From Amoebophrya sp. A120 (lineage: Eukaryota > Protista > Dinoflagellata): a stretch of DNA of 64,000 bases. This document shows, in pieces, positions 7,271 to 61,800 of this stretch. The notes under the pieces were generated by a model. The model saw nothing but the letters and a program-made list of their open reading frames with translations. It did not search any database and was not told where the DNA came from. A program made the translations under genes and the position numbers. The stretch covers positions 705,309 through 769,308 of the forward strand of contig CAJINV010000015.1 of the NCBI GenBank assembly GCA_905178155.1. Direction: 5' to 3'. Within the stretch, counting starts at the first letter, position 1, and each line of letters begins with the position of its first letter.

Positions 7271-7342
7271 ATTATCTTCTTGACTTCTACGGGGTGAAGA
7301 TGGGCACTACGTAGTGTACGTAGAACTAAAAGTTCTTTTTAC

Positions 7343-12103: not shown

Positions 12104-12801
12104 CTGTTACATTCTCAACTGTTGCATGGCTTTGTGATGCAAAATGGGCATCAACGTAAACATGGTAAAGCTACTTCGCATGACAAATTTAAATTTTGGG
12201 AGGGCCAAACAGCATGGGACTCTGTGCTGAATTTGTTGTAATGCAAGACTTGCAAGATCCGGCCTTTCCTTAACGTCATACCATGCGGCTTGTGATTTAA
12301 ATTGTGACAGATTTGGGACGGATTTGGGACGGCCAGCTTTTTCTGATTCTAGGCGCCCCAAACCGGTCATATGGCCAAGCCATGGCGGGGCGGTGTGGGA
12401 CTTGGCGGCAGGGCTAGCGCGCGTGTTCTGAACGTGTTCTACCGCTTGGGCAGAACCTAAAACCAAAGCTGCGAAAGTACGGCCATCATCCCCCACACCA
12501 TTGCCTGGGGCGTTCCTTTTCACATCTACATAGGGCGACCCAGGGGAATGAAAGGCCGACGACTGGCGGCTTCCAAGGGCCAACAGGTAGCAGCACAGAA
12601 AGCTGGGAGATGTAGAATGCAAAGGTAAAGAGGAAGAACGTTTGCGGCCCGAAGGGCCGCCGAGCGAAAATTTTCGCCAGTGCCAGGCGCGCACCCATTA
12701 AGCAAAATTCGAGACCGACCGAACGGGCACGGAGAGAGTCCCGAAGAGAAAGCAAGCGCTTCTGGGAAGACGCAACTTTTCAGATTTTGACGCCAAGCTT
12801 T

Positions 12802-13170: not shown

Positions 13171-13495
13171 CACACCAGGCCAGTCAAATCTCTCTCCAGT
13201 CCTGTGCCGCCGTATGGGCGTAGCTTATTTTGGTGCCACACCAAGGCGAAACTCCATCGCGGGGAACCATGGGAGTGGGCTGCGGGGCACAACGATGGGC
13301 CTAATTTGCAATGCCAAAACGAGCTCTGGCGCCCGCAATGCCCGCGCGTGCTCTCGAACAGGAGCGCTGCTTTTCAAAAAACCCTGTCCGTCCCAATATC
13401 GTCAACAATTGGTCAACATTCTATTCTGCGCCGGTTGGTACAGCGTTAACCTTTCCTTGTAGCCACTCTTGCATCACAAATCCACGTAAGAACAG

Positions 13496-15738
13496 CTAAG
13501 AATGTACTAACAGTTGAGAACGCCATACCGAGTGGGCTTCGCAGAATCGCTGCGACCACTCTGGTGTAACGGTCGCGAGGGTGGCCAGCATGAGCGGAAG
13601 GTCGGAGAAACGCTGAAAAACGTCAGAGAATTGCAGCAGCGCGGGTTCTTCTCCTCGTTGAACGCTCGAGTAGATCAGTGTCGAAAGTTGTCCGCAGGGA
13701 GATGTTGACTCAAGAACGCCAGCATTATGCTCGTCCGGTAGTCTGTCGCTTTGGAGGTGGCGGCCGTGAGACAACAGGAGGCCTTCTCCGGGTTGTGGTG
13801 CCTTGGGAAAAGTAGTGCCAACACCGTTTGGTGTTCCATCAACAACATCCCCGACTGTGACCAGGGTACCACGCTCAAGGCGCTGTCTCTGGTCTTGTGG
13901 CCCAGCAAGCGCTCCTCCTGAAGATGCAGGACCACCTCCCTGCATCATGCCGCCGCCTGCAATTCCGGTATTTCCGGACACCGAGGACAAGCGGCGCAGC
14001 TCTTCTTCTAGAGCGTGAATCCTTCCTAGCAAGGGGTCTCCTAGAAGATCAGACAATGCGCTCAGTCGCACACGAGGACCCTGGAATTCCTCGAAGACGT
14101 TCTGGATCTGCTCCAGTTCCGCGCGACAAAAATTCTGCCATAATTGCTCTTGATCAACACTGGCTCTCGGCAACCCTGGGATTTTCGTTAGCGCTTGCTG
14201 AATTGCAAAGGTCGACTCGGAATGGGTTGGATCAAGAAACCACCCCAGCACGTTGCGATACCGCTCGCAAGGCGGATGCGCTATCCCCTCAGGTCCCGCC
14301 ACAAGGTTGACGTCAAGATCCTCTTTGTATCGCGAGAAAAAACTGCTTCACTGTAAACTTCTTGTAATGTAGTTGCAGAGAATGTATCTCGCAAGTGTTT
14401 GTCTTGCTACACATGCAACACAGTGGATTTTTTTTAGCTGCGTTTTCCCTCAGGAACCTTGCATGAGAAATTTTCTCTGCCGTGTAGAGCAAACGACCTG
14501 CAAAATCCCTACAGTGATGAAACACTTTTCTCTCACGATACTTTGAGGGGGAACTGCAAGCGAACAACGCTTGGAGGTGGAGGTGGTGCCCCTGCTGCGC
14601 TCCCTCCCGCTGCGAGAGGATCTGGGGATAATCCGAATGGTGTTTCTTGTTCTTGCTGCGCTTGTGACAATCTGGAATGCGTGGCCTCGATCATCTCGCG
14701 GAATTCCGCAAACCTGGCATCCAGGTTTTCGAACTCCATGGCGTTCACCGCGTCGATAATCCCCTGGTCCAAACCAGAATCGGAAAGATCGTCCCACTTG
14801 CCAAGAATCTCCTCGTGCTTCGCTTTTTCTTCCGCCTCATTGTTGCTACTGGACGACATGCCGAGTACTAATGACATGATGCTCGCCCCCATCACGGACG
14901 TCGACTGGGGCTTCTGACCACTTGCCCAGGTGAGTCCTGCCACGCCTGGCACATCTTCAGCTGTGGGCAAGTACTTCTCTGGGTGCAAAAATTCCTGCAC
15001 CCAGTGCTTGGTTTTGACACGATTGGTGAACGTCTGTTTGTTTGCCGCGTCGCTCCTGGCAAAGACTTCGGCACAATTTTCGTTTGTAGCTCTGCGCACC
15101 CCGCCGTCGTCGCCATTCCCTACTTCTACGTGGTCCGAGAAGTGCAAGCTGCAGAAGCGCTCATAAATCAAAAGTGCCAGACCATTCTGGGGGGCGGATG
15201 GGTTCGCTTCGTCGGGCCTACGACACATTTCATTTCCCTGCTCGGTGTACTTGTTACACACGAACTGCACTTCGCCTTGTTGGTGCTTGGTGAGTAGGCT
15301 CCACGAGCTATCGGCTTTGTTCTGGTCTTCCACAGTGTAAAACCTGGGTGAACCCGGAAAGTATTCGCCATGAATGAGCCCATTTTCTCGCCGGATGACG
15401 GCTAACAGCTCCGCGCTCACCTCTGTTGCTGCTGTCGCTATCAAAATGAAAAGCCCCCCATTCCCATATCTGAAACGGAGTTTTTCTTTCTGGTTCTGAT
15501 GCTGGACGATGCGCGCAGTGTCTTGCAATATGGGACTGCGGCCAGGTCGATCCGCAGCCTGGGTAGAGGCGTTTGAGTCGCTTAGCTTCGCATGGCAAAC
15601 GGCCGCGCTGAAGACCCAGCAGCAAAAGAAATCGCTTCCATTATGATGCGGAGAAGCCTCTGCACATGCGCTTGCCTGCTTGCAAGGCGAATAAAAAGCA
15701 GATACACTTTTATAATTGTGCACACATCTTCTACTCAA
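13496..15738 (-). CDS. Hypothetical protein (ORFs 14533..15738 and 13496..14302 joined across the 14328..14540 introner)
   Basis: In-frame join LQFPLK/EDLDVNLVAGPEG. May be part of one gene with the ORF at 15751..16620. Confidence 0.7.
14328..14540. mobile_element. Introner, D-size class (213 bp)
   Basis: TATCGCGAGAAAAAA / TTTTCTCTCACGATA; TSD CTTTG/CTTTG. Confidence 0.85.
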
Positions 15739-35538: not shown

Positions 35539-38507
35539 TTATTGAAACAACCTCACGATATCCCTCGAAGCCTGTTTTGACACTTTTTCGGAGTTCGAAA
35601 TCTCAGTTTCCAACCTCCTCGCCTCGGTCTGGAGCGATTCCTTGCAGTTTTTCAATTTCTGCATGGCTTCCTCGGCCCGTTTCCTAGTGGAAAGCTTCGA
35701 GTTCTTCTCCTGCGAAAGGCGCGCACGGATTTTGTCAAGGTCGAGGTTGTCCATGGCCTTCGATACCGTGGAAGCCTTTGGCCTTGCTTGCGCTGGCGGA
35801 GCAGACTGGGGAGGCTGCGTCGAATTATTCACCTTTCCTGGGTCCGACGTTTCCTTCTTGTTGGTTAATCTTAATATCCCGGTCGTCGATGAGACAACGG
35901 CAGTTTTTGCAGTGGTTTGAGTCGACAACAGCCGGAAGATTTCGTCCGCTGCCCTTTCCTCCGCTGTTGAATACGGTTGCAAAGAGGAGGCTGTGCTGCA
36001 AAAGCCGTCTTCCGAATCCTCACTCCTGCTCTGCCGCGCTGCTGGACGTCCGACTTGATTTTCCGTCAACCTTGCCACGTTTTTTCGCAGCGACTCAGCT
36101 TCAAGCACTGCGGAGCACAGCACTGCCTGCAGCTCTTCGTGAAGATTTTCAGCTGGCGTATGATGGTCGTGCTCGCTCCTGTGTAAGTCAGGTGCCGAGT
36201 CATCCGCCCTGTAGCACCTGTCTGGAAGCCGCACACCACACGGAGCGAAGCCGGAAGAAGATGGGTTCGCAGGCGGTGGATTTTCGCTGGTCCTTGTGCT
36301 TGTTCTTTCTAAACGCGGACTCGTTCTTGTCCTGTTACTGGCAAGATGATCACTCTCATCTTCCCCCTCCTCCATTCCTCCAATCCCGCAAACTACACTC
36401 TCCGCCAGCACGAACTGGTCTGCGTACATCGGCGCACAGACCACCGGCACAGAAGCCGCAATCGCTTCGTGAATCGAGGCGAAGCCGCAGTGCGTGATGA
36501 AGACGGCTTTGTGCCCGTAAGCTTCCAGGATCAAGCGTTGCGGGGCGAGGTGTTTGTAGTTTTGCTGGTGCTGTTCCAGGGATTTCAATTTCTGTTGAGT
36601 TTCTGGTAGGGCACTAGCTGCAGAAGCAGTCCTGTCTCCTCCGTCACAGCTTGTGCTGGTGCTGCCCTTCGCGTTTACGTCGCTTTGACGAAACAGAACT
36701 CCCTCGTCGTTGAGAAAGACGATGTTTTCGTAGGACGAAGACGAACAAACCGAAAAATTTCCGACTGTTTCACATTCACAACTGTTCGGCGAATAATTAT
36801 CTTCAATCTTCTCCAGGTCTCGACGACTGGCGGTGATGAGAACAACGGTCGCACCAGCGTCGACGACGTTGTATCGCTGCCCAGAAAAACCGCTACAACT
36901 GCCTTCTGGACCTGATCTCCTACCACCACCACGGCCGTAACACGCCACTAGCAACTCCAGCAGTTTTCTCGGTACCTTCGTCACCGAACCGAAAGAGACG
37001 TAGATCACTCGGGAAGCACTGCTCACCAGCTCCTGCGTTTGCTCGTCTTGGAAGATTCTGATTCTCATTGGGACGTCGGGTGGAAGCAGCTGCTGTCTAC
37101 GCGCAGTATTGACGTCGTCCCACGGCCGCGCGATCGGATCAATGCCGAGAAACACCACTTTGCCCTTCGCAGTAGAAGTCGCGGCATCTTTTGCAGTCGT
37201 GTCGCCGTCTCGGCCATGATTCATCCTCGCAGCTTTTTCTTTCTCCTCAGCTTCTTTAACCTTCCTCTGCACCGCAATCGGCGCTAGTTCCGGAACAGAG
37301 AAGCACAGCGACAAGGCCGCTCCAGTCGGCGGGAATGTCAAGTCGATCCAGCATATCAAATGCAAAGATGTCTGGGTCTGGAAGGGTGCAGATTTTTGCC
37401 ATGCTGTTTTTGCATGACCCGGAAGGTCTGGCAAGCAAGGTCTAACATCACAGGTTTTGAGAAGCTGCGTCGATGCCTAATCCGCATGACAAATCGCCTA
37501 TTTTTTCGGTGACAAAAGTGGGCAACTCTTGCTGTCTATGCATGAGAGATTTTTGTGTGGTGTGAGATGCGCATCACAAGTTCCGTCTTTCCAGACCCAG
37601 CCATTTTTGCAGGTGATACAGCACGAAACTGTGCAAATCGGATGTTTTATCCCGAGCGAGTTGGCGACGAGAGAAGCCTATGCAGTGCAAAAGTATCGTA
37701 CTCGTAGTAATCGCAGTCATGCATTACAGATTTCTTTCTCAATGTAAATCCGCATTGCAAATTCTATTTCTCATGCTGAGGAGATTTGTCATGCGATTTA
37801 TACTAGTACGATGCTTTTGCATTTCATAAAGCCCAGGGGGTCGCGACGTCGTAGAGGAAAGCAGTTGTAGACAAAGACTGGGACCACGACGTAGAGGTGG
37901 TAGTTGTAGTCTTCAGCAACGCACCAACTTCTCCTTGTGTGGATGTGGTCCTCGACGTGCCGCTAAGATGAGCATGATCTTCGTCTGCACGATTCACGAT
38001 TCCATCCGCCCACTGCAGCGCGGTGGAAAATTGCGACTCCGTTTTGATGGAATGCGCAGGAGGGGCTGGTGCAGATTCCTGTCGTGTCCTCGTGCTTGGA
38101 TCTGATATCGTGACGGACAGGTGAGCGTCGTTCTGGGCGCCCGTTCGACGAGCATCAATTCCGCACCCGGCGTCCTCAGATGCAACGACCTCCAGAAATT
38201 CGTCCCTCGCTTGTTCCGCCGTGTAATTCCCCACTTGAGAATCCGCCAGGATCATCACGTGGATGTTGGTGACGAAAAAATTGGTCCTGCGGTTATGCAA
38301 TTCCAATTGCGAGTCGCTTTTCTCTTGCGTGACAGCATCAGCAAGTCCTTTCGCTATCCGCACCAAAGGCTGCACGTGCGCGGCGGAAGCCAGGTTCACG
38401 AGGAACAGGAAATCGAAGGAGCGGGAGATGTTGGCTTGCGCGTGCCCCTGGCCCTGCTGCTCTGCAGCATCAGAAGTTGTCGTAGAAATAACCGTGGGCA
38501 TGATCAT
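35539..38507 (-). CDS. UDP-glycosyltransferase, GT1 family (3 exons)
   Basis: N-terminal AAHVQPLVRIAKGLA (GHxxP motif), VIYVSFGSV, and PSPG-type box APQRLILEAYGHKAVFITHCGFASIHEAIAASVPVVCAPMYADQF; in-frame joins across 37679..37828 and 37354..37618. Confidence 0.9.
37354..37618. mobile_element. Introner family B (265 bp)
   Basis: Family B TIRs; TSD CAGCA/CAGCA. Confidence 0.95.
37679..37828. mobile_element. Introner family C (150 bp)
   Basis: Family C TIRs; TSD AAGCC/AAGCC. Confidence 0.95.
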
Positions 38508-42600: not shown

Positions 42601-45301
42601 GTACGAAACTTTTGCAATGCATATGAACGCGTCAAAACCCTCCCGCAACTGCACCTGCGTCCGGTTTTCCGCCAGACAGTTCGTGGCCTGCGCTTTATCA
42701 AATGCAGAAGTGTCTGGGTCTGGAAACTTGTAATGCTACAAATGAATGGTAGACGCACTGCAGTACCCAGCTATGCATGACAAATTTCTTGACTGCCATG
42801 TCTTACGTATTCCGCATGGCAAACTGCGTTTTTTCGTGACAGGTAAGAGGGCCTTTTCGTGCCTATGCAACACAGATTCTCGAGTCATGCCAGACAAGCA
42901 TGACAAACTTGCATTCTTCCAGACCCAGACATTTTTACAGTTGATACGCTTCCAGGAGGAGCAAATTGCTGTAGATCTGCCGATCCTGTAGGATTTCCAG
43001 TTTCAAGCCCGTGGTAAGTTTCTTCTGCAACGAGGAATATCGGTTCTTCATCCCCTCGGCTAAGAAATGGAGGGCGGCTTGCTCGGCCTGTTGGGTCGAA
43101 GAAGAGGAAGAGGATGTCGCTCCACTACCACCCGATTGGAAAATCACCGGTGAAGAGCAGTTTTCCAGCACCGTTCCGTACTCCAGCGTGTCGCGACACT
43201 GGATTTTCTTCGCGGGACCACCAGACTTCGAACTGGAAGAACTGGCTGGATTGGTTCCGGCAACGACCGCTTTCGGGGTCTGGTCAGCATTATTATCCGC
43301 TGAAGCGTTTGACGACGAGGACAAACTCGCCGTGTCCACCGTCGCCAATAAGTCGCGGATGTTCTCCTCGCAGACCTCGAAAAACGACATGCGGACGAGG
43401 TACTCAAATTTCAATTTCGAGTTTTTCCGTCTTTTCTCCTTTTCCGTGATGGCTTGGAACAGGTTTTTAATCCCGAGCGCGTACAAACCATTCGCTTTTC
43501 CCGACATAATGTCCGCCTTACCGGTTTTCTCGGCGCCGAGGGTGAGGAATACCTTTTTTGGTTTTGGTGATTTTTGTGCTTTCTTGTTATCCAGAAAAAA
43601 ACACCCATCCCCATCCATTTTGCTATTTTTTCAACAAAAAAAAACCGGCTTTTTTTCAAAAAATTTTCAGGGTTGTCACCAATCGGCATCGGAAGCAATC
43701 ACTTTAATGGTGACATAGCTAAAGTGGCGTCATAGCTAGGAACTTTTGACATGAATGAAATTTGCTAGGTCCATCACAGGTCATCGCAGCAGGCGACGAC
43801 TTCCAGATCCTGCAAAAGCCTCTTTTCGCCGCCGCACATCGACTCTGGCCCCATCGCTTGGCCCATTTTGCAGTGGCCATATCGCCATGCCGCCGCGTCG
43901 CCACATGGGATGAAAGCGACGGACCTGGGATGGATTTTGACACGTGCTGTCCTTTCGGTTCGAGTGGATAATACAAATTCAGGACGGGAAGACTTTTGCT
44001 GTTCGGCAAGGCTGCCGTAGGAAAAACTTTTTGATTTTGTTTTTTTTCCAAAAAAATTTCGTTTTTGAAATTGACCTTGTTTTTGATGGATGATGTTTTT
44101 TCGCACGACGGTACCACAAATATTGGATCGACCCATCCAGTCCATTTTCTTCTAGAAATGGCTGGATGGGTCGAAGCAATATTTGTGGTACCGTCGTGCG
44201 AAAAAACATCATCCACAAATTCTAGTGTCATTTTGAAAATTGCAAGAATTCCTACTTTTTTGTGGATGATGTTTTTTCGCACGACGGTACCACAAATATT
44301 GCCTCGACCCATCCAGCCACTTCTACAAGAAAATGGACTGGATGGGTCGATCCAATATTTGTGGTGCCGTCGTGCGAAAAAACATCATCCATCAAAAAAG
44401 TGAGCATTTTCAAAAGCGTGACATTTTTTTGCGAAAAAAAAAATCGTTTTTTTTTCGTGAGCTGGAACGCAAGATCTGCTCTGCAACTATCGATGATAAT
44501 TGCGCAGCTGGTGCTGCTCCCGCTAATTTCAATGGTGCAGCCGCGGCGTTCTTGGCGAGTTCTCCGCTACCTCTGGGTATCTGTGCGTGACTGCGCCAAA
44601 AGTTCAAAACCTCCATGGGACCAGAGGTGCCCAACGACGAGAACTGGCTTCGGCGAGTTGTATTTCTCGGTCGTGGTTCGGATCTCGGTTTCAGCTAGCC
44701 ACCTTAAAATCACATAGCGAAAGTATGTGCAGCCACTGACGCCACTAGCTAGCTCCATCAGTTAGCACTTCTCGCAAATGCCATGCAAAAAATATTTCGG
44801 ATTTTTTTCTTTTTTTATTTATTTTTCATGATTTTTTTGCATTAAAAAAATGGCAAAATGGATGGGGATGGGTGTTTTTTTCTGGATACTTGTTGGAAGG
44901 GTTGTACAACAAAAGGACAAGAAAGCTCTGTCGTGGTATCCGAAGGAAAAAAATATGCATGCACAACGAAATAAACGCACCATCGGAAACGGCATTTAGC
45001 GAGAGTCTCAGCATCAACTACGACTAAGTAAATCTGTTGCAAATCATCGATCTTTCTATCATTATACCCCATTCACCCCCGCCAAACTTTCTGCTATCAG
45101 CGGATTCAGAAACGCGCTTGCGATCGAGTCTGGCGACTCGTTGTTGCTCAAACAGGCGTCCACCTTGATCTTCGTGTCTTTGGAAAGCTCCGTAGACCGA
45201 AGCGTGACGGTTTTCTCATCCGTTGTGAAAACATCTTCCGTCTGGACCAGCTCGTTCGGGCGCCGGGCCCGAATCTTCACCAAGCGGGTGATGCGCTCCA
45301 T
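39656..45301 (-). CDS. Degenerate kinesin motor domain fused to a CCDC78-like coiled-coil protein
   Basis: LVKIRARRP, LAGVNG/VFLTLGAEKTGK (P-loop), RMSFFEVCEENIRDLL, RKSCLTHLLKEVFNG; long coiled coil (ORF 40186..41472); C-terminal EKERAKLLVRATSAEEEL resembles the CCDC78 C-terminal motif as I recall it. Confidence 0.85.
39999..40271. mobile_element. Introner family B (273 bp)
   Basis: Family B TIRs; TSD TGTTC/TGTTC. Confidence 0.95.
41777..42246. mobile_element. Introner family G (470 bp) carrying a nested 145-bp insert
   Basis: Family G TIRs; TSD GCACC/GCACC; insert 41874..42018 flanked by an 18-bp direct repeat. Confidence 0.92.
42471..42623. mobile_element. Introner family C (153 bp)
   Basis: TATCCACTGCAAAAG / CTTTTGCAATGCATA; flanks TGAGC/TGAAC. 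Confidence 0.88.
42696..42946. mobile_element. Introner family B (251 bp)
   Basis: Family B TIRs; TSD CGCTT/CGCTT. Confidence 0.95.
43588..44888. mobile_element. 1301-bp non-autonomous TIR element, copy 2, inside a GT-AG intron of the kinesin gene
   Basis: Perfect TIR TATCCAGAAAAAAACACCCATCCCCATCCATTTTGC at both ends; TSD CTTGT/CTTGT. Confidence 0.95.
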
Positions 45302-46264
45302 GGTAACGGACTTCAACTTGCTGAGTATCTTTAGTGTGTTGTTGCTAAAAAGAAAAATGACATCGGCACGAAGATCTCCACTCCTTCGACTTACATTCTA
45401 GAAGTGTCCACAACTCGAGCTCAGTCTCTTTCGTCATGAGTCAGTGTTCTCTCCCAGTTCCACCAGCACAAATAACAAGTTTGGTTTTGGTTTGGCGTTT
45501 GCATCTATCACTCCTCGCTGGCTGGTCCTCTCATACTCCTCGAGTTGTATCTTCGTCTACGCTTCGTTGCCAAGAAAAGTCAAAGTGCAAGCTGTCCGGC
45601 TTTGATCAACAAGTAGTCCAACAACTACGGAAAACTCATTCTTTCAACCGACAACCGCGGCCAAGCACAACGAGTTCAGGTCCACTCATGATTCTTCAGG
45701 AAGGCTTACAAAAACTGCCCATGCTTGTTGTCGCACTCATATTACCACAAGAGCTGGTGGGCTGTAGCGTTTGAGCAGTGCCGCCAGGCATGCGCTCTGC
45801 CCCTCGAGCTCCCTGAAGAAGCCGGCCGGTGGGAACCCACGCACCCACCCAACCATCCAGCCACGAGGCAACGGCCAAACGGCTTGGGTGGAAAAAGCTG
45901 GGCGGCGATTGCCCCGGCGCCCGCTCAATCAAGCGAACACCAGCCAGGGCCAGCTGGCTTGGCAGGCCCGGAAAAATAGGGGCCCTGGCGCAACGCCGCC
46001 TGTCATCATTTTCGCCCGGGGGTGAGGGCTAGCGCTGGCCCCCGGGCCCCGAGCGGAGGGCCATCCAACAACCGAACCGCGGCCCGGCCCCCCTTTTCGG
46101 AACGGGCCCGGGCCTAGCTCCAAAGGGGCGGCGGGCCCGCTGGCGCTGTCTCGCTCCCTGCCCCCCGCGGCGCTGCCGCGGGCGGCCGTGTCCAAAGGAT
46201 GGCGGGGCGGCCGGGGGCGTGCTTGCAGAGGCGCCGCGCGCGCCCTCTTGTTTGACTCTTTTCG

Positions 46265-46332
46265 CGCCGTTACCTTCGTAGCCGGGCGCCGTCGTTACCT
46301 TCGTAGCCGGGCGTCTTCGTTACCTTCGTAGC
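46265..46332. repeat. Three copies of CGTTACCTTCGTAGC with a period of about 25 bp
   Basis: Read directly. Confidence 0.85.
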
Positions 46333-46361
46333 GGACGCAGGCGCCTAGCGCCTTTTCACCT

Positions 46362-46706
46362 GTGGGGGCCTTGAAGTTACTACGAATCCACTCCGGCACT
46401 GCTGCCGCGGTTCGGTTTCCGGAACGGCCCCACACACTTGGCGAGCGCTTTACTATGACAAGCTACGCCCTTCCACAACCGCGGCAACCCCTACGCCCAT
46501 CGTCTCTCCTTGACTCGCCCCACTCGGCGGGCGTTTCCGTATTTGCGCCGGTCCTTGTAATCGTCCTGGCCCATGGCTTCTCTCCTACGGAGCGTCTCCG
46601 ACCCATCCGGCCTAGTCGTTTCCGGGCGGGTGCCGGCTGGCTCCCGAGAGAAGCAAGCGACTGACGACCCAGCCCGGGCGGGTAAGTAGTGCTGGCGCGC
46701 CCCAAC
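46362..46706 (-). ncRNA. Candidate structured non-coding RNA (approx. 345 nt), family unassigned
   Basis: Long stems (GCUUCUCUC/GAGAGAAGC; GUUGCCGCGGUU/AACCGCGGCAGC), a closing helix, and G-U pairs that work only on the minus strand. Confidence 0.4.
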
Positions 46707-47219
46707 CATCTTTGCGTAGAAGGTGCTTTTTCATCTATGCTGGTGGTCAGATGATGGAGAACAACCAACATGAGCATGAAAATCAATCATGAGCCTGACA
46801 TCTTCCACTTACATCAAAGCGTGCCAACATGCACACTGATCAGGAATTTACTCTCTCATGCTCTCGAGACCACCAGAATCGCCTTTGCTTTCACTTTGTT
46901 CGCGTTTTTAGTCCCCAAGTCTGTTCTCCACTTACTTCTTGTTCTACGCACAAGCAACTTCATCCCTCTTTGTCCTCTAGAACGTCGGACCACACTTACC
47001 TCAATTCGGATCACTTGCGCTCTTCTCTCACGGTACGCCCGCTCTTTGCACCCGTAGCCGCTGCGGAAACCTCAACTGCCAATCGCCAAACAAAGACAGG
47101 ATGCACAAGCTATTTTGACACCAGCCAACACAGCTGCACCTGCGTCATGCCGCCAATACGCTCCGTCACAGAGAGATGGTGATGGCCTTTATTCTGGCAA
47201 CGACCATGCACTCAGAAAA

Positions 47220-47870
47220 AACGCGGGAGGCGCGGGTGGCTGCGATGCGATTCGTTGGCTGCCCCGCCGATCAACACACAGCACCCGCCGATGGCGGGAT
47301 CTCGGCTGGAACGTCGGCTACGCCGAGGCGCGGCAGACCACTACCTCGGGGCGCGCGAAAGTGAAAAACTCGCACTGCCGGCGCGCAACTAACTTAGCTG
47401 CCGCGGGAGGGTGCCCGCGAGGTCGGCTGCTCAGGCGCCGGCCGGCCCTGGTCGCCATGCCGGCCGAGACAACAAGCGGGCGGGGGCCATTAGTTACGGA
47501 AAACAAGAACGCCGGCGCGCGGGCCCACTTGGCCACGGGGAGCGACTGCCCCAAGCCCCTGGGCGAATTGGATTCCTGACGAGCCCACAGGCCGCCCACA
47601 AGCGCAGGGCCCGCCCCGCGCTGCACCGGCTTGGGCTTCCCAATGAGCGAGGACGTTCCAAAATAAAGAGGCCGGGCGCGCGGGCATGGTTTCCGCTGCG
47701 CTTGTGGTGCGGTCCGCCGATGTGTCCTAGGTCGCGGCCGCGATAGGTCCCCCGGCGCTGTAGCATCATCGCCGCTGGGTCGCGACCTACTCAGCGGAGC
47801 CGTGGCCGCGTCTGGCTTGGTGTTGCTGGGGCTGTAGCCCACCGGCGACATCGGGCGCCGTCAAGGATTT
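47220..47870 (+). ncRNA. Candidate structured non-coding RNA (approx. 650 nt), family unassigned
   Basis: 12-bp stems CCACAAGCGCAG/CTGCGCTTGTGG and TAGGTCGCGGCC/GGTCGCGACCTA plus many shorter hairpins; G-U pairs favour the plus strand. Confidence 0.3.
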
Positions 47871-48451
47871 GGATTCCACCGAAAAGGGCCCCAAAATCTT
47901 CGCTGTTGATCTTGAAACTCTCAAATTCAAAACTCTACTCGAAGTCGCAGAGGATTTCTACTAGTTCTAGTACACTACACGCGCTCATTCTCATCATCAA
48001 GAGGATCCTTACATTCGGTTTTGTCCGCTCCGCATTTGTACGCAGTACTTACCACTCTGCGCTGCCGCTGGCACCAGCTCTTGCGCTCTAGAAGCTCTCG
48101 CCATGATTCTCTCTCTGAGTCACACAGTCGCAGATCGTTGTCGTTCATCTCGTCTGCGCCGTCGTGATCAAACAATCGAGAACAAAGTTGTGAACAAAAC
48201 TCGACACGCGCGTGTGACGAGTTCACTGTAGAATTATTACCCGTAGAGCAAAATCCTTGCTCTCATCAAAAAGAGAGTGCTGCTGTGTTTCGGTAATAAA
48301 GTTATTTTCGTTTTATCGTAGTTTTAATTGAGAAGTTGAAGTCAAAGTCTCAGTCGCTGTACAGTTCAAAACCAGCCGTCGGAATTGCACTCTTTCGAGC
48401 GCTCGAAAAATAATGCAGCCGATCACCCTGGAAAAAGTAACCGCGTTTTTT

Positions 48452-51400: not shown

Positions 51401-54089
51401 TTGCGACTGCGGTTGCGCTAGTACTTGGGGAAGGAGGATTCTCTTCGCGAAGATCAGAAATCCCAGTCTGGTTAATATTGGCAGCTGCGCCTTGTTCGGA
51501 AGCTGCTGTGCCTCGTGTACCAGCGGAAGTAGCTGTGCCGCGTGTAGTTGTACCAGCGGAAGTAGCTGTGCCGCGTGCATCTCCAGCATCATCTCCTCCC
51601 AACATGGTCGTACTTCCTGCTTCACCCCCCGGCGCCCCACCAGCGGCAAGAGCTGCAAGCCGGCGCTCCCGATCCTCTCTATCCCGGCTGTCCCTGGTCA
51701 CGTAAATCATGTGCGTCCTCGGCTTCGCTTTTCCCGGGAAAAATACTTTTTTCCACGCGAGCAGCGTGCCCAGTAAAATCGCCAGGTACCCGCCGACACA
51801 CAGCTCGAAAGATAAGACTTGGCTGGTCCGGGTTTCGCCGAAGAAGATCGCAAGTAAGATATGCATTGCAAAAGTATCGCACTAGTATAAACCAGCCATG
51901 CTCCGGCTACCGCCGGAGCGCGCGGCTGTTTGGCCGGGTTTGAACTGCTTGCGGACCGGACCACAACGACATGCATACTTAGGCCCCCTCAGCACCGTCT
52001 GCGCGCTTCCCGCGCCTAAGGGCGCTCTGCGCAGGGAGGAGCTACCACTAGCATTGGGGCAGAACAGGAGGCACCTAGATGCCACACCAGTCCGCTACGC
52101 ATGCCTTTCGTTAATCAAGACGAACCAAGAACCGGCCCGCCCCACCCCATTCCCCGGCGCCGCTTTTTCAATGACTTCAGTGTGGGAGGGGGGCGCGAGA
52201 GGGTGCGCGAGAGGGTGGCGCGAGAGGGTGGCGCGAGAGGGTGGCGGGGGCTGGCGCCGAACAAAACAAGTCCGCGAAGGGCCTGCAATGCTAAATATGG
52301 GGAATACCATGCGGATTCGCGCCCGCCACTTTGTGTCTTTACCCTCTCGCAGACCCTCTTTTTTACCTCTTTTGGGGGTCCCCGCTAATAATCCGGCTAT
52401 ACTCGCGGGTAGAGGTCGACAGAGGTGGCCCAGAGGTGGCCGAGAGGGTGCGCGAGAGGTTGGCCCTTATTCGCGCCACCTCCCTCGCCCTCTGTCGACC
52501 TCTCGCGCCCCCTCTTTTTGACCTCTCTGCACCCTCTGAGGCACTTAGGCGCCGCCTTAAGGTGGGTCCTTCGGCGGGCTATACTCGCGCACCCTCTCGC
52601 CGACCCTCTCGAAAGGGGTCCCGCGCCACCTCTCCACCTCTGTCGACCTCTTTTTTACCTCTTTTGACCTCTTTTTGACCTCTCGGCCACCTCTTGTTTA
52701 CCCTCTGTCTACCTCTTTTTTCGCATGAATATAATATATAGTAATCGCATGACAAATTTTGCCAAGAGCAAAAATGGGATTTGTCATGCTGAAAAAGGTA
52801 GACACAGATATCTGTCATGCACGAACAACAACACGAACGCAATTAGTACGAGTACGATGCTTTTGCAAAGGATATAAGAATCGAATCAACGACATCGTGA
52901 CGCCGCCGCAATATCGAATCCGCTGCAGGGCCTCGAGGTAGAAGGCATCACGGGTTTCAGCGGTTTTCCGGAAATGTTCCAGCTGTTCTTTTAATCTTTT
53001 GTTTTCCTCTTGCAAATCGGTTTGCTGTTGCTCCAGTCTCAGCAGGCGCTCCTCGAGGGAAGTAGGGGGCGCAGCAGCCGCGCTTTCTCGTCGTGGTGAT
53101 CCTGGATTTCTCCCTGGCCTCGAGTGAAAGTTTTCCTCTATTTGCTCTTCCATCTTTTCCTGCAGCAGGGCGGGGACAAATTTCGTGTCGTGCTTGTTGC
53201 GAGGAATTATATCGTCGTCATGGCCCATGCCCATCACCTTCTCGCGCGCAATCTCTTGCAGCTCTTCCTCTTGCTTCATCTCGCCCACCTCTACTTGTAC
53301 GGACACTTTTTCAGCAGCTCCTGCAGCCTCAACATCAGCTTGGACCACGAAAGAACTTTCGCCGTCAGGAGAGAGGACCATTTCCGCGTTCTTGTGTATG
53401 TGTTCGGTATGCTCGTCCTGATTCCGCTCTCCAGCTGCTTTCATGCCTACTTCGCTACCGTCATCGACGTCGTCATGCGTCAAATGTGACTGATCGTGTT
53501 CCCGTGCTATGTGTTCAACAGCAACTTGATGCTGCTGTGCCGCACGACGACCGTCGTTGTGACCACCATCATCACCTACACCTAGTATTCTTCGACGTGG
53601 CTGCAAAAACGAGTTGTTTGATTGCTCTGTTTGTGCATCTGAGTCTGACTGCGTGTTCCTCTTCACAGCCTCGTCTAGATCCTTCACTTCTGAGTAGAAG
53701 CGGTCGCTTTCCACTTGTTGCGCAAGCGGAGCAACTCCAGGAGGTGTAGGCAGCTCACCCCCTGCAGCAGCCTCCGAGTGGTGTGCTAACACAGCCTCCT
53801 CTCCCAGGTGGTCCAGCACTCCGTCCTCATTTCTATGCCGCTCTGCCACCTGCTGGTGGTCTCTTCTTTCTAAAAACTTGTGGTGCGTAGACGAACTAGG
53901 AGCTTCACGCCTGTCATCCCCTGGTGCTGGTGACGCACCACCTGTCGAAAGAGCTGAAACTTGTCTAGGGAAATAACTCTTTTGTAAAACGCCTGAGAAA
54001 TTAAACGCTGTGAAAAGACTCAATAGAATGAGATGAAGAAAAGGCGATCTACATCGAACGACGATGGCATGCTGCATAAACTGCATCAT
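48452..54089 (-). CDS. Multi-pass membrane protein with N-terminal signal-like segment and acidic/His-rich region; 5 introner introns
   Basis: In-frame joins SLIRFL/LAIFFGE, PLHS/YRSWCRWKKLS/xIGDHGD, AHY/VNQLNPD, AMLL/SFQLSKRW; several hydrophobic helices. Frag1/DRAM-like resemblance is only tentative. Confidence 0.85.
48757..49056. mobile_element. Introner family E (300 bp)
   Basis: TATTGCAATGAAAAATCCCCCCTCCCCATATC / GATTTGGGGTGGGAACTTTTTTCACTTTGATA; TSD CAAGA/CAAGA. Confidence 0.92.
49105..49260. mobile_element. Introner family C (156 bp)
   Basis: Family C TIRs; TSD TAGTG/TAGTG. Confidence 0.95.
50578..50905. mobile_element. Introner family E (328 bp)
   Basis: Family E TIRs; flanks CGCTC/GGCTC. 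Confidence 0.9.
50946..51198. mobile_element. Introner family B (253 bp)
   Basis: Family B TIRs; flanks GAACG/GAGTG; frame restored. Confidence 0.9.
51860..52874. mobile_element. Introner family C expanded to 1015 bp by a nested Helitron-like insert
   Basis: TATGCATTGCAAAAGTATCG / CGATGCTTTTGCAAAGGATA; TSD TAAGA/TAAGA; 162 bp remain after removing 51892..52744. Confidence 0.92.
51892..52744 (-). mobile_element. Non-autonomous Helitron-like element, copy 1 (853 bp)
   Basis: Minus strand starts TTACTATATATTATATTCATGCG and ends GCTCCGGC-GGTA-GCCGGAGC-ATGGCTGG; inserted between A and T with no TSD. Confidence 0.8.
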
Positions 54090-55832
54090 GATCTCCAAAG
54101 ACAACTTGGTTGGGGGCAAACGTGGTACGTTTGCACGTGCAAGTATCCGAATCTACTATTGTCTACACCGTTGAGTCGCAGTACTAAAAATTTGTCACGG
54201 GCAGGTATCGTTATCGCTTTGAGAGGGCCTGTTCGATCTTCGAACTAAAATGCTTATCGTCTTAAGTAAAAATAAACCAGAAAGGAGACCACACTGGAGT
54301 GAACGCAACGAGAACGAGTACGAGAGCGACATGTTGCTACGACGTTGTTGATGAATGACAGTTGAGACGGGTATAGCTACATGCAATCTGTGGCGGACGA
54401 TTTAGGAGAGGTAGCGCCGAGAGAGCACAATCACAATGTTGACCGAACATCTTCATTACGAAGGAAGACAAATACTGCATGCGGACGAAGAAGCTGTAGC
54501 TCAGGACGAAAACAAAACTCAATAACCGATCCCGATGAGCAGGAAGAGGCCCAGTAACCGAATAGTTGTGTGTATGTGTTTACTGTTACTAGGTCTTTGC
54601 GCTACTGCTACAGAAACTTCATATCTGCTCCATTTCTTGTAGCAGAACAGAAGGCCCTTGCAGCAAATGAATTTGCCGCCGAGAGCGACTAAGCTTTCGC
54701 CCGCCCGCTCCTTCTGTCTGGAGCAGGAAACCCAGGACCACCTGCTGCCTGTCCGATTTGATGTTCGTTGTCGATGCAAAGATATCATACAGCTTTATTT
54801 GCAATTTGATCGTTTCAAAACTCTGGTAGATAATCATTCGGTGGTATACAGGGCATTCGTGATTCGCATTTTTCGTCCTACTACAGCTCTATGATCTACG
54901 ATTCATACCACCTCCCCGCCGTGCAAATTCAACATAGATAAAAATTGCACGACAAATCATAGCAGCTTTTTTGATAGACAAGTAAAACTTCTATATGGTC
55001 TACAACTAACTTCCGCGTAGTTGATGCTTACAAATCTCTTTTCTCTTAGAAGTAGTTTCCGAAGTACAAGACATTTTGTCTTGCTATTCTCACTTCTTGT
55101 TTTGAACCTAAAGCAAATTCTTTCCAGCAGACTGGCGTATTTTTGCTGGCACACGAGTTGCACGACTGCAGCGGACAGATATCTTCAACATACGCCTGAT
55201 GAAGAGGACCCCCCGCTGTCGCTGTGTGCCCGCCAGATTCTCTTTACTTTCTCCCCTTTTGCTATTTTGTGTGATGTCAATGAAAAAATGAAATGCCTTC
55301 CAGATGGTAGCACTCGGGCTGACGGGTAGCATAGGAGTGGTGCATCTTCACACCCCCGCCCTGCTGCCCTTTTACTTCTTGCCACGAGCGGTTTCTACCA
55401 TTGCTAAGAGTAATCCAATCAAGTGTAAAAAAGGTCATATCGCCCAAAGAATTGGCGCCTTTTGATGATGTTTTAGACAATGATTAATCGAAAAAGTTGA
55501 TACGAGTTTTTAGATGAGAAGACACGTGGCCGTAGTGGTCATCTTCATCGCTTTTCATCTTCGCACAGTGAAAATCCTGGTGACGAAGAAACTTTTGTCG
55601 CTGATCGCAGGATGAAACAAACAGCAACGGAGCAAGAACTTGTACTACAAAATGCGCAGGATTTTGCCAGATCGGGTAGAAACTATTTGTCGCTTAGGAG
55701 TTGTAGTTGGAGATGAGCGAGATGAGGTCGCTGACGTTGTTCTTGACGAGCTTGACAAATTCTTCTTGCATATGCATTGGAGGTTTTTTCACTATCCACC
55801 ACCGCAAGTTGCAAAAAATTATGTCGTCGTCT

Positions 55833-58800
55833 CTACAAATCGTCCATGTCGACTTCCATGATCTCCTTTTTCTCCACTACTTCTTCCTCGATGACCTCCT
55901 CCTCGATAATTTATGAACTGCAAAAGTATCGCACTCGTAGTAATTGCAGTCATGCATTACAAATCTTGTTCTTAAGGTAAATCCGCATAACAAACTTTCT
56001 TTCTCATGTTAAGGAAATTTGTAATGCATTTCTACTAGTACGAGTACGATGCAACTTTTGCAATGCATATAATTTCCTCCTCCACGATCTTCTCGGCGTT
56101 GTTCGCAGCACTACTTCCGCCCTGATTCCACCACTCGTTGCCACCAGTTTGTGCTGAGGATCCAGCTGCTGCCCCCTGTAGTTTGAGTTATTTTCAGTAA
56201 GTTTAGAAGTACAACGCAGTCGGAGCTGCTGCACATGTTGATGAGGCATGACGTAAGTTTGTTTGCACTTGTTGCTTTAGAAGAGCTGAAAACATCAAGA
56301 AAACCAAAACGGAAGTCCAATGACACAACAAGAACAAAAATCACATACCGTCTCCACCCACTTATTCGTTGCATCATCCCACTTCCAGTTTCCGTCCTTA
56401 TTCCAATTATCTGTCGCACCGTAATTGTTGTTGTAGCCAGAAGAGGAAGCAGCAGCTGCACCGGAGGAATTATTGTTGTAGCTGTAGTCTTTGTTGTAGT
56501 TGTCCCGATCGTTATAACCGGTACCGGATGAGCCCCAGTTATTGTCGTCCTTGCTTTTGTTCCAGTCTTTATTGTTGTTCCAGTCGTTATAATTCCAAGA
56601 ACCACTGTCCCACTTGCTCTTGTCGTCGTCTTTGTTCTTTTTATCCCAACCTTCCCAGTTGGACGAAGTTGCAGCTTTTTTCTCCACTTCTTCCTCTTCT
56701 TCCGCACCAAAATTCGGATCCCAGGCCATGTCGGCGATGAGCTTCTCATGTTCGGTGAGCCCGCCGGTTTTCGTGAATTCGTAATTGGTAATATCGAAAG
56801 GAAAAACTCCCCCTCCCCATATCGAACAGGCATGTTTCCGAAAATTTGTGTTGCTGATTTGAGGTCACAAATCACGTTTGTCTTGCAAGGAGACAACGGC
56901 AAAAGCTTCGCCCCCATTATAGAAGCGATTTGTCATGCTGTTGGGCCTAAAGGGCAGCCGCTTGCCATGCTGAACAACTAGACCGATACGCCCCTACATA
57001 GCCTGGGGATCTGGCGGCAGTGCCTTCCTGCAATACAAAGCTGATTTGTGTACGCAAATCCAGCATCAGAAACTTCGTTTCGATATGGGGAGGGGGGATT
57101 TTTCCCTTTGATAGGTAAACTGGTGCTTTTGGTACCCGGTGACATCGTTGAATTGTTTCATCTATGCAGTGCAAAAGTATCGCACTCGTACTAATCGCAT
57201 TCATGCAAGACAAATTTCTTTTTCAAGCTAAATCAGCATGAGAAATTCCACATGTCATGCTGAGCTAATTTGTATTGCAATACTACGAGTACGATACTTT
57301 TGCAGTTCATATCATCGTGTCATGCATTTCCGCTTTCTGGTGGACGAAGGGCGCGAACTTGCTATCCGTTTCGAAAGTCGGCTCCTTGTAAACCAAACCC
57401 CCGCTGGATTGAATGACCTGCTGTTCCTTGCCCTGCTTGTCCTTCACCGGAACAATTTTCCACTCCTTGTCGCTGACTGTCGCGATGAGCGACAAATCCT
57501 TCACCGCGTTATTCAGCACTGCAACCTGCAAGGCCTGCATCGCGATGTCGTCTTTCTTTTCCGGACTGCTTTGGACGGATTTATCCTGGATCGCTTTCAC
57601 ACCAGACAGTTCGTTCTGCTCGGCGGCGGCGGAGGCGATCTCCTGTTTCTTCTTTTCAAACGCCTCCTTCCCGAGGCACACGTAGTTGCCGTTTAGTGGG
57701 TTTTTCGGGTTCTCCAAAATTTTCCAGCTCTGGTGTTCTTGCTCCCACCGCGCAATATGACAACCTCAGGTTGGAAATCCTCAAAGTGCAAATTACTATC
57801 TATTATATTCATGCGAAAGTAGAGGTCTACAGAGGGTCGAAGAGAGGTGGCCGAGAGGTAAAAAAGAGGTCGACAGAGGTCAAAAAGAGGTCGACAGAGG
57901 TGGAGAGGTGGCGCGGGAGGTCATTCGAGAGGGTGGCCGAGAGGGTGCGCGAGTATAGCCCGCCGAAGGGCTCGCCCTAAGGCCGCGCCTATAGGGACCA
58001 GAGGGGGCCGAGAGGGTCCAGAGAGGGTAAGCGAGAGGTGGACAGAGGTGCCGGGAGGTTGCGCGAATAAGGGCGAACCTCTCGCGCACCCTCTGGGCCA
58101 CCTCTCGGCCACCTCTGTAGACCTCTACCGGCGAGTATAGCCGGATTATTAGCAACACCTCTCGGGAGAGGTCAAAAAGAGGGTCTGCGAGAGGGTCAGA
58201 AAACCCCGAATCCGCCCGGCTCGCGGCCGGTTTTGTTTGGGCCTTTTCATCGCGCAGGCCCGCACCCTCTCGCGCTACCCTCTCGCGCACCCTCTCGCGC
58301 CACCCTCTCGCGCCACCCTCTCGCGCTACCCTCTCGCGCTACCCTCTCGCGCTCCCCTCTCGTGCCAACCATTTCCGTCGGGAAGCAAATAGGGCGGGGG
58401 CGGGATGGTGATCAAAATAGGGCAGCGCGGCCCCCGTTCTGCTTCCTTCGGCACCTATGTCGAGGTGGCTTCTCTTCGCCCCCAAGCTTCGTTGCAGTTG
58501 CTCCCTGCGCATAGCGCCAGCAGGCGCGGGAAGCGCGCAGGAGGCCGCGCGGGCTGACATGGCGCAAACCGGCGCCAGTAGTTCCCTCGGTCTGTCACGC
58601 TGTGCCCAAAGACCCGGCGCTGCGGTCCGACCCGCGCATTGTCCTGCCCCGCCACAACAGCCTTGCGCCCCGGCGGCAGCCGGGGCATGGCTGGTAATTT
58701 GTAATGCAAAAAAACGACTCCAGTTGAAGCGCCATTTGTAGTCGGCGCATGACAAATTTCCTGGGCCCTTAAAGCATGTCTGTCATGCAGGTTAAGGCAA

Positions 58801-61800
58801 AGGGGTGCGCTTCTGTCGTGCTAAGCAGCACTCCAATTCTTGACCCCCAGCAGGACAATAGTCGGCCTCCATTGTGTCCTCTGCAATACAGTCTTTTTTG
58901 AGTCGTTGTCGTATTTCATGCATCACAAATCATTTCCACTTTGAGGATTTCCATTGTTCTGAGGCTTTCATACGCAATTACCACGCTGTCGTACTTTTCG
59001 ATCGCCAACCGGGATTATCAAATGTAAAAATGTCTGGGTCTGGAAGAATGCAACTTGTAATGCGTATTTCAAAACACAGAAAAGTCTCTCATGCATACGT
59101 AGCAAAAGCTGCCCCCTTTCTGTCAGCAAAATAGGGGACTTGTCATGCGGATTCGGCATTGCGGAAGCTTCTCGAAACCTGTGATGCTAGAGCTTCCATG
59201 CCAGACCTTCTGTGTCATGCAAAAACAGCATGCCTCTTCCAGACCCAGACATTTTTACATTTGATATGGATTCTTCCTGCTTCTTGCTGTTTTTCTCCTT
59301 CAAAATCGTCAAGTGGATCTTCGGGATGATGATCAGCTTTGACTTGATTTGCAGCGCCACCCGGAAGTGCTCCTCGTCGATGACCTGGCGGAACTCGCAG
59401 AGCTGGCCCTTGTAGGGATTTTTGTCCGTCGACTTCATGATCTTCATCCGCAAACCCTTGTAGGGGTGGGCCTTTTTTTGCCCCTTTTCTTTGTCGTGCA
59501 ACTCCTGCCACTTCAGCGGAATTTTGTCGGGCCTTTGCTCCTCCTCCTTAATAATAGCCAGCTCTTGCTTCTGCGTCGTCAGTGCTTTCTGTACCGCAGA
59601 ACCGTGGGTCAAAGCCAGCGTGCCCATGTCGGCTGTGTTTTGTTGGTGCATGAAGAACATTATCGAACTTCAAAAAAGGCTGTTCTTGCGGACATGTTGA
59701 ACATATGAATTTGAACTACAGCTGCTGCATCTGTATCTATAACCACATGAACAACATCTTCCCAGAAGTAGTGCTACGTACTGCTAGCAGCAAAAAAATT
59801 CACTATATCAAAAATACCCGCGACTTGATTTATGGTTGCCAGCTGCCGTTCCACCATACCCCCGTCTTTTCGCGTCGCTTATCAAATGCAAAAATGTCTG
59901 GGTCTGGAACATTCTAAACTTGTGATGCTGTCTGTGGATTCTGAAAAAATTTGTATTGCATGAACAGCAAGAGGACTCCAGTTTGTGCTACGCGGAGAAC
60001 AAGGCGGCTCTCATGCGGTAGAGGTATCAGAAAGCGCTCTAAAAATCTGCGATGCTGCGGCATGCATCACAGACGTCATGGGTCATGGAAAATATGCATG
60101 ACAAGTCTAGAAATCTTCCAGACTCAGACATTTTTACATTTGATATCGCTGCGGCTTCGTCAATTGCGTATTTCTCGGTCTTGCTGGTTGTCAAAGCCAG
60201 TTGATTCTATCCTGAGTAAAAACGTACCCACACCAGAGTTGTAATGCAGATTTGCAAAGACAGGAAGACTTGTAATGCGCATCCCCATGAGAGCCATTTC
60301 CAATCGTGTTTTGGAATTTGTGATGCTGTGAACAGGATGAGCAGATGAATCTGTGATGCGGCTACACTTGCTAACCTGCACTACACTGCATACGGCAACT
60401 TGTCATGCGTGACTCACAAAACTCCTAGGTTTGTGTTGCAAAATCCTCATCCTGACTCTGGTGTGGGTACGTTTTTACTCAGGATAGATTCGCCTGCGAC
60501 TTCTTCGCTTCCGGTCCGAAGTCTCGTAGGCCGCCCTTCACCGCTTTCTCGAGTTTGCAGTCAGTACCACGGACGAACATCCAGTCGTTTTTGTTTTCAT
60601 CGTCCCGAATGTACATGCCGTCGGTGAGAATGTGCATGATGCGCTGCGTGCTCTGGTTCGTCTGGGCCCCTGACCCGGAGATTTGTTTGTTCTGCATGAA
60701 CCGGCACTGCACTGCGTCGAGTTCGTAAAGCAGACGCCCATCGTTGTCCGCCTGGACTAGCCTGCCTTGCGTGCCACGTTTAAGACCGAACTCCCCCTTT
60801 ATTGCTTCACTTATCGTTTTCTCGGACTTCGCGTTGGACTTCAGATGGCATTCTGTTTTGGTGATGATGTGTTGCATTTAGTTGGATTTTTGATCATGAA
60901 GATGGTCGTGCACGTGCTCGTCTTCATGCATGAAAATTTCATGTGTACTACTACGTCTATCAAGCGATGATCGTGATGTCCTTGAAAGAGAAAGCCTCTC
61001 ATTTCAATTCAAGCAGAACAACAATCAAAAACAAAGCAAAAAGCATCTTCGTATTAAATACCGCTCTGCTTCACGTCCAGCACGGTATTTGCGGTGCTCA
61101 AGACCTTCATGCCGTCGTTGGGAAACAACTGTAAAACGACCGCCGGCTGGCTACTAACCCCGTCCCCCTGCTCTACATGGACTAGGTCGTAGAGTGTGAA
61201 GGCAGAGCCTGCTGCGAAGGTGGTTTTGTCCACCTCGTCTTGATTGGTGGTCATGTTCGTCTGCATTGAGTACTTGTCTTGCTCGAACGTTACCTTCACG
61301 TCGTTGATGGGCAAGTGCACTTCCTCGGGCCAGCCGTCCATCCCCAAGGACGCAAAGGCGACGATTACCGTTTGCGCATCGGTGTCCGCCTTGATCACGT
61401 CTCCTATCCTCCCCCGCTGCTTCGCATGGTGGGAAATCACCTTCACGCGCTGCCCCGGCTCGAAATACTTGCAGCACTCACGGGGGTCTACTACGACGTG
61501 ACCTGATAGTTTTTGTTTTGATAGGATGAAATACTTTCTTGTCGGTGTCATGCGAAATTCAAAACTGCGAATCGTTTTTATTGGGTTATTTTCCTTGACA
61601 CGTTCGTACTAACTGTCCTCCAAATAGGAAATTCACAACAAATCACTATCACACCTATTTTCCCGATTCCCAGATCCCCCAGCCTCGGTTCCACCATCAT
61701 CGTTCCGTTTTCCAACATTTTTCTCACGGTCGCCTATGGATGTGTCAGAGTTGAAATCGACAAAGTTGAAGTAACTTGCAATGCATAAAATCGATACCAG

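Follow-up and report, generated by a model that had tools for sequence, protein, structure and literature searches.

Canonical Helitrons are described as starting with 5' TC and ending with 3' CTRR, with a 16-20-nt palindrome about 11 bp from the 3' end, and they insert between A and T (A/T) without target site duplication (TSD) (PMC4067079; general features in PMC3789558). The target of Helraiser is given as an AT dinucleotide with a preference for AT-rich DNA only (PMC4778049). Proto-Helentron-Pi of Phytophthora possesses a 5' TT, a CTAG end and an A/T target (PMC4067079; PMC11417382). Amoebophrya sp. A120 is a marine dinoflagellate parasite in which introner elements make up ~17% of the genome (PMC7789003 section 11). 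In the family table of PMC12130899 (supplementary file 8), 'Helitron' is mentioned 18 times, none of them in an Amoebophrya row, and one Polarella family is classed as Helitron. The text of the PMC7789003 supplement, taken apart from its figures (including the repeat breakdown in Fig. S4), contains no 'Helitron'. The element analysed here is undescribed in the literature found on Amoebophrya introners, Helitrons in dinoflagellates, introner-Helitron links and Helitron targeting.

The window is a stretch of 64,000 nucleotides which matches Amoebophrya sp. A120 through a kinesin motor exon (42938-43630, minus strand), with 100% identity over 87% of the length to a 935-aa protein of this organism (P0001). 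Pfam search of 22 of the window's 88 long frames gave UDPGT and kinesin only, the former as a partial UDP-glucosyltransferase match (E 8e-08) in a 645-codon frame (35542-37476, minus strand). Upstream of the kinesin-like gene, positions 45900-47900 are GC-rich (0.61-0.62), contain no introner matches and carry short GTTACCTTCGTAGC repeats; this is possibly a regulatory or intergenic region. Short repeats cover ~20% of the window outside the two element copies (12,407 bp). The window was compared with contigs of run X1, which are genomic, and of run X3, taken as RNA by guess only, yet its contigs join exons. The raw RNA runs X10 and X11 were left out (413 and 10 mapped reads, nearly all partial).

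Two copies of the element, e1 and e2, are present in the window at the positions, on the strands and with the shared ends given in a preliminary description, as found by sequence comparison (Table 1). Identity between them is 79% over the first ~570 nt, drops in the middle and recovers to 85% in the last 48 nt. The 5' 23-mer was found twice in the window and never in 100 shuffles. The repeat arrays noted earlier were recovered as 13-bp and 11/21-bp repeats. The 8-bp stem, 4-nt loop and ATGGCTGG end described for the 3' terminus are all present, and they are surrounded by an invariant outer 5-bp stem, CAGCC/GGCTG, which had escaped the first description and takes in the terminal CTG of the element. 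The 5' third (57820-58160 and its e1 equivalent) consists of strand-asymmetric AGAGG repeats followed by their complement, so a long hairpin is possible; GCGAGTATAGCC occurs twice in this part and may represent transposase binding sites. No Pfam domain was found in six element frames, nor in any of the nine frames of the element and the further copy L002 taken together. In Rfam no RNA family reached the threshold, and the five sub-threshold matches included no ribozyme, tRNA or 5S at E<=1.

Table 1. Coordinates of the two element copies, their parts and their hosts in the window.
Feature	Position	Strand	Description
e1 host introner, family C	51860..52874	-	ends TAT...ATA, TCTTA as 5-bp direct repeat, element 32 bp from one end
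e1 intron	51855-52874	-	1020 nt
Element copy e1	51892..52744	-	853 bp, GC 0.61, subfamily A, non-coding
e1 5' terminus	52722..52744	-	TT-start, AT-rich 23-mer; mean identity 97%, 5 complete copies
e1 13-bp tandem array	52186..52246	-	4.8 copies; number differs between element copies
e1 3' terminus	51892..51928	-	outer 5-bp stem, inner 8-bp stem, 4-nt loop (51900-51919), CTGG end
e2 host introner, family G	57756..58972	-	ends TAT...ATA, CGCAA (on +) as 5-bp direct repeat, element 37 bp from one end
e2 intron			1222 nt; upstream 39-nt exon 58973-59011
Element copy e2	57793..58694	+	902 bp, GC 0.64, subfamily B, antisense to host gene
e2 5' terminus	57793..57815	+	23-mer match
e2 13-bp tandem array	58264..58362	+	7.7 copies
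e2 3' terminus	58658..58694	+	outer stem, inner stem-loop (58667-58686), C-G variant pair, CTGG end

Further copies were searched in metagenome_contigs with an exact 26-base 5' pattern free of host sequence. Four loci (L001-L004) were found, all on JACKZZ01 contigs with introners like those in the window. Three of them (L001-L003) are complete, with lengths of 869-934 bp and the same ends as e1 and e2; L004 is incomplete as its contig ends inside the element. The comparison includes six copies, five of them complete, and all three new loci long enough to judge are full length. Profile searches of the window and L001-L004 gave no further or partial copies, and the 3'-end pattern had no match in viral_contigs or genome_contigs. 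A viral match to a shorter 5' pattern (L005) was rejected as a 19-bp chance match in AT-rich DNA. Summed contig depth was 16,744 at the TT end and 6,885-10,769 at the hairpin end, while single-copy contigs showed 40-48; this sum, which is no copy number, hints at a hundred or more genomic copies. Another short dispersed repeat was noticed in the window (12093-12236 and 13462-13528), in L002 (1966-2192) and in L003 (1395-1450).

Conservation is concentrated at the termini, with 97% over the first 23 nt and 93% over the last 37 nt versus 59% just inside the 3' end. The 20-nt palindrome, which stops 8 nt short of the CTGG end and the T that follows it, is present in all five complete copies with 65 of 65 cells paired. 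The compensatory change reported earlier for the stem is a real pair, T-A to C-G; it represents one event in one of the five copies, and it is weak evidence by itself because 106 of 500 shuffles reach it.

The junctions are uniform. In all six copies an A stands before the initial TT, and in all five complete copies the hairpin and ATGGCTGG are followed by T. Removal of e1 and e2 left a gap-free alignment at A/T to empty copies of each host family, and X1 contigs contain family-G empty sites of the same length, with joints 57792>58695 and 57788>58695 (the latter with four letters between). As the homologous empty sites have the same length, there is no TSD. Since the first base of the element and the next base of the target are both T, one base stays ambiguous, and the data would also fit duplication of a single T or a junction displaced by one base. 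Terminal inverted or direct repeats above 7 nt were absent within the terminal 80 nt. The A/T insertion without TSD claimed for e1 and e2 is repeated in every further copy, and none of these showed a TSD, terminal inverted repeats (TIRs) or a variable 3' end. X1 contigs also gave two loose ends, one being a further family-C-like junction judged on 6 flanking bases only and the other, in two contigs, having an AT-rich flank that could be placed in no family. The distances of 32 and 37 bp from a host terminus are correct for e1 and e2. Closeness to a terminus is no rule, as L001 lies centrally in a 279-bp host of a third introner family, 139/140 bp from its ends. Several copies of GCATKACAAA, or of its complement, are found in each of the otherwise unrelated introner families, which makes it a candidate motif for binding or splicing common to them. 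A full or degenerate copy is only a few bases away in each of the three insertion-site classes. A common spacing to this motif was dropped, since the geometry differs between the three target classes.

A feature absent from the preliminary description is a probable site-specific hot spot. Four of the six copies (e1, L002, L003 and L004) occupy the same nucleotide of introner family C in the same orientation. With ~33 AT site-orientations per family-C host, the chance of a shared site is ~3e-5. AT richness as the sole cause was rejected, as 4-20 of 34-36 family-C sites are equally AT-rich. The elements at this site are 88-97% alike while their hosts are only 68-83% alike, no closer than empty family-C copies are among themselves (69-87%). 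For e1/L003, 793 of 833 element positions versus 110 of 151 host positions are identical (Fisher p 4e-15), and for L002/L004 593 of 614 versus 88 of 118 (Fisher p 4e-13). The hosts have different 5-bp TSDs (3/3 checked) and their flanks are without BLAST similarity. This contrast, along with the differing TSDs and flanks, points to repeated site-specific insertion at one family-C base. Joint copying of host and element as a composite was rejected, because both would then be equally diverged. The arms do not seem to decay faster by themselves, because a 1.3-kb TIR element of the window is copied at 99.8% identity, arms included. That element (5971-7271 and 43587-44887, inverted copies with internal repeats) shares its TIRs with ~110-120-bp forms (35-146, 8994-9113) and with L002 5955-6018; it is a long form, of very recent date, within a short introner family. 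The element in L002 runs antisense to its gene, as inferred from the open frame, so the hot spot follows host sequence rather than splicing direction. At the mirrored arm position, family C (e.g. 55919-56069) has A/TTACTA on the opposite strand, which resembles the element 5' junction; none of the four family-C insertions uses it.

The hot spot could also have formed from one family-C insertion of a Helitron-like element with ordinary AT targeting, spread by homing-like ectopic gene conversion or within a composite introner. The copies form two subfamilies, e1, L002, L003 and L004 (A, 100/100 support) against e2 and L001 (B), and the membership of all four same-site copies in one of them suits conversion, which would likewise leave no TSD. 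The AU test did not reject the filled hosts as one clade (p 0.147; pairs 0.232 and 0.18; ~150 bp only), so it is the divergence contrast that supports independent insertions. Small flank variants are common to sister elements, a G at +12 in e1/L003 (0/8 empty copies) and a 5' variant in L002/L004, which could mean co-conversion and speaks against repeated insertion. Plain composite copying is excluded by the unequal divergence of hosts and elements. On one side only 32 bp of imperfect homology is available, a poor recombination substrate, and there are differences between e1 and L003 at 2 and 7 bases from the 5' junction. Spread by conversion is considered unlikely.

The anatomy of the element was compared with the described classes. 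The hallmarks claimed for e1 and e2, A/T insertion, no TSD, a hairpin and CTRR, hold in all further copies found. The 3' end is CTGG in all five complete copies. The 5' end is TT in all six, as had been pointed out for the first two, and not the TC that defines HLE1; TT with A/T has a precedent in proto-Helentron (PMC4067079), with a CTAG-type 3' end there, and the match is structural only. Proto-Helentrons are further defined by a RepHel grouping with HLE2. HLE2 (Helentron/Helitron2) has 11-18-nt subterminal inverted repeats and a T/T target, whereas here the terminal 80-mers have exact inverted matches of 5-7 nt at most and the target is A/T. TIRs with TSD, as in MITEs or introners, are present in the hosts and not in the element. 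No RepHel was detected among the 22 of 88 long window frames scanned, and no end-to-start circle joint among 15 listed X1 contig joints, although contigs drop rare forms. As no RepHel partner was seen, Helitron membership is judged on structure alone. By anatomy the element resembles a non-autonomous Helitron, though it is not filed as HLE1. Its partner may have diverged, may be lost or may belong to another class, because a Repbase-domain search found no DNA-transposon transposase in A120 (PMC7789003).

Two other origins were weighed against these ends. Read in reverse, the element may be a non-autonomous site-preferring retroelement that begins (5') with the GC-rich hairpin, finishes (3') in a short AT-rich tail and owes its blunt insertion to a non-LTR enzyme of the R2/Tx1 type. 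Tx1 is known to target another transposon (PMC6719617 section 13), A120 has autonomous non-LTR elements (PMC7789003), and the higher depth at the TT end is what truncation would give. SINE/non-LTR traits such as a tRNA, 5S or ribozyme head, a variable tail and a TSD are absent; both ends are fixed and precise, no judgeable new locus is truncated, the three targets are unrelated, and the combination of CTRR, hairpin and A/T would be coincidence. A retroelement is regarded as quite improbable. Another TSD-free enzyme, whether Replitron, IS91/IS200-like HUH or Crypton-like tyrosine recombinase, would explain the ambiguous T as a crossover overlap. HUH transposons show hairpins and orientation-specific targets without TSD (PMC10288648), and IS91/IS200 typically have longer target specificity. 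The end geometry, on the other hand, closely matches Helitrons, and the terminal or near-terminal short direct repeats that mark both ends of Replitrons (PMC10288648) were not found: the longest direct match between the ends is 4-6 nt, not terminal and not common to all copies. Little credence is given to such an enzyme.

The enlarged introns, earlier claimed to be tolerated at 1.0-1.2 kb, were followed in the X3 contigs. The e1 intron is spliced out exactly: contig 9 joins 52875 directly to 51854 without mismatch, removing 1020 nt and preserving a 644-codon open frame. For e2, contig 12 spans 57312-57750 and 59268-59500 with 39 letters between, which fits by length a 1222-nt intron, the 39-nt exon and a 256-nt intron; its join is stop-free in one frame. 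The claim is upheld directly for e1 and by length for e2. X3 contigs over the element interior show 16-20 differences, as expected of other copies, and are uninformative on element transcription. The element is sense to the gene in e1 and antisense in e2, in both cases 32-37 nt from the intron 3' end. A120 introns have non-canonical splice sites with no U1 detected (PMC7789003), and introns of 1020-1222 nt fall outside that analysis because its range was 40-1000 bp. The exon join is exact despite a 0.9-kb GC-rich self-complementary insert so near the intron 3' end; the needed splicing signals would be either confined to the terminal inverted-repeat arms or independent of distance, which bears on how Amoebophrya splices non-canonical introns. 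The ~1.0-1.2-kb 'TIR introner families' in the A120 genome may also be composites. Judged by length among 38 of the 58 A120 rows, fam103 and fam135 (~1.14-1.19 kb, PMC12130899) might be element-introner composites.

All six copies, including the four new loci, lie in introners, and the hosts span three introner families (C, G and the third for L001). Introners take ~29% of the non-coding DNA, as calculated from 17% introners and ~41% coding (derived from intron number and density). Under this share, four of four new loci in introners has p ~0.007, or ~0.02 if same-site copies are counted once, weaker still with AT bias. The evidence for a general preference is modest because 29-37% of the window's AT sites, exons included, are already inside repeats. 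A general introner preference, as proposed earlier, is probable, and a preference exceeding the effects of AT bias and of selection that removes exon insertions is hypothetical.

On balance, we think it fairly probable that these copies represent a ~0.9-kb non-coding, non-autonomous rolling-circle (Helitron-like) family whose main subfamily inserted repeatedly at one family-C A/T site and is spliced out. By analogy with Helraiser (PMC4778049), an HUH/RepHel transposase, unseen here, would act in trans and nick the AT-rich TT end, one strand would be copied by displacement up to a stop at the 3' hairpin, and the copied strand would be joined between A and T of the target. Against this stand the failure to find a RepHel or other transposase with these ends and the TT start. 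From a Helitron one would not expect a hot spot of one base, because Helraiser prefers only the AT dinucleotide and AT-rich DNA. The hot spot may come from recognition of introner sequence or structure; the palindromic host may expose single strands at the insertion site, or the cue may come from a protein that binds the repeated GCATKACAAA motif beside it. Selection would reinforce the pattern by removing exon insertions, while introner splicing would remove the element from the mRNA. A bolder reading, held only tentatively, is a rolling-circle hyperparasite with nucleotide-level introner targeting, its subfamilies split among introner families and borrowing the host introner's non-canonical splicing. 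If true, a Helitron-like system would here have long target specificity, and its copies would amount to a natural insertion scan in which the last 32-37 nt of an Amoebophrya introner are separable without loss of splicing. Known Helitron targets are only AT (or TT) in AT-rich DNA, and a family repeatedly using one base of another transposon would extend the recognition known for HUH transposases and could point to a targetable, TSD-free integrase.

Among known systems, the element resembles HLE1 (Helraiser/Helibat) in CTGG, the 20-nt subterminal palindrome, A/T insertion without TSD or TIR, and in conserved ends with a variable middle and tandem arrays. It differs in the 5' TT, the palindrome 8 nt from the end, the outer stem including the terminal CTG, the reuse of one nucleotide of another transposon and the unseen RepHel partner. 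With proto-Helentron-Pi it shares the 5' TT, a CTRR-type 3' end and A/T insertion without TSD, a likeness of end structure. Proto-Helentron-Pi is ~14 kb, autonomous and CTAG-ended, and a later report gives it short inverted repeats and a 5' stem-loop, while the element is 0.9 kb, non-coding and without TIRs. The hosts are like the A120 introners of PMC7789003 and PMC12130899, with TAT...ATA, inverted repeats, 5-bp direct repeats and non-canonical splice sites; unlike them, the element is a passenger which creates no intron itself. Repeated entry of a mobile element into a multicopy transposon is known from Tx1 into Tx1d and Tourist into Tourist (PMC6719617 section 13), and there, as here, the transposon host is a low-cost site. 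Those guests are non-LTR or TIR elements, whereas in the present case a guest with rolling-circle-type ends sits in a spliced introner.
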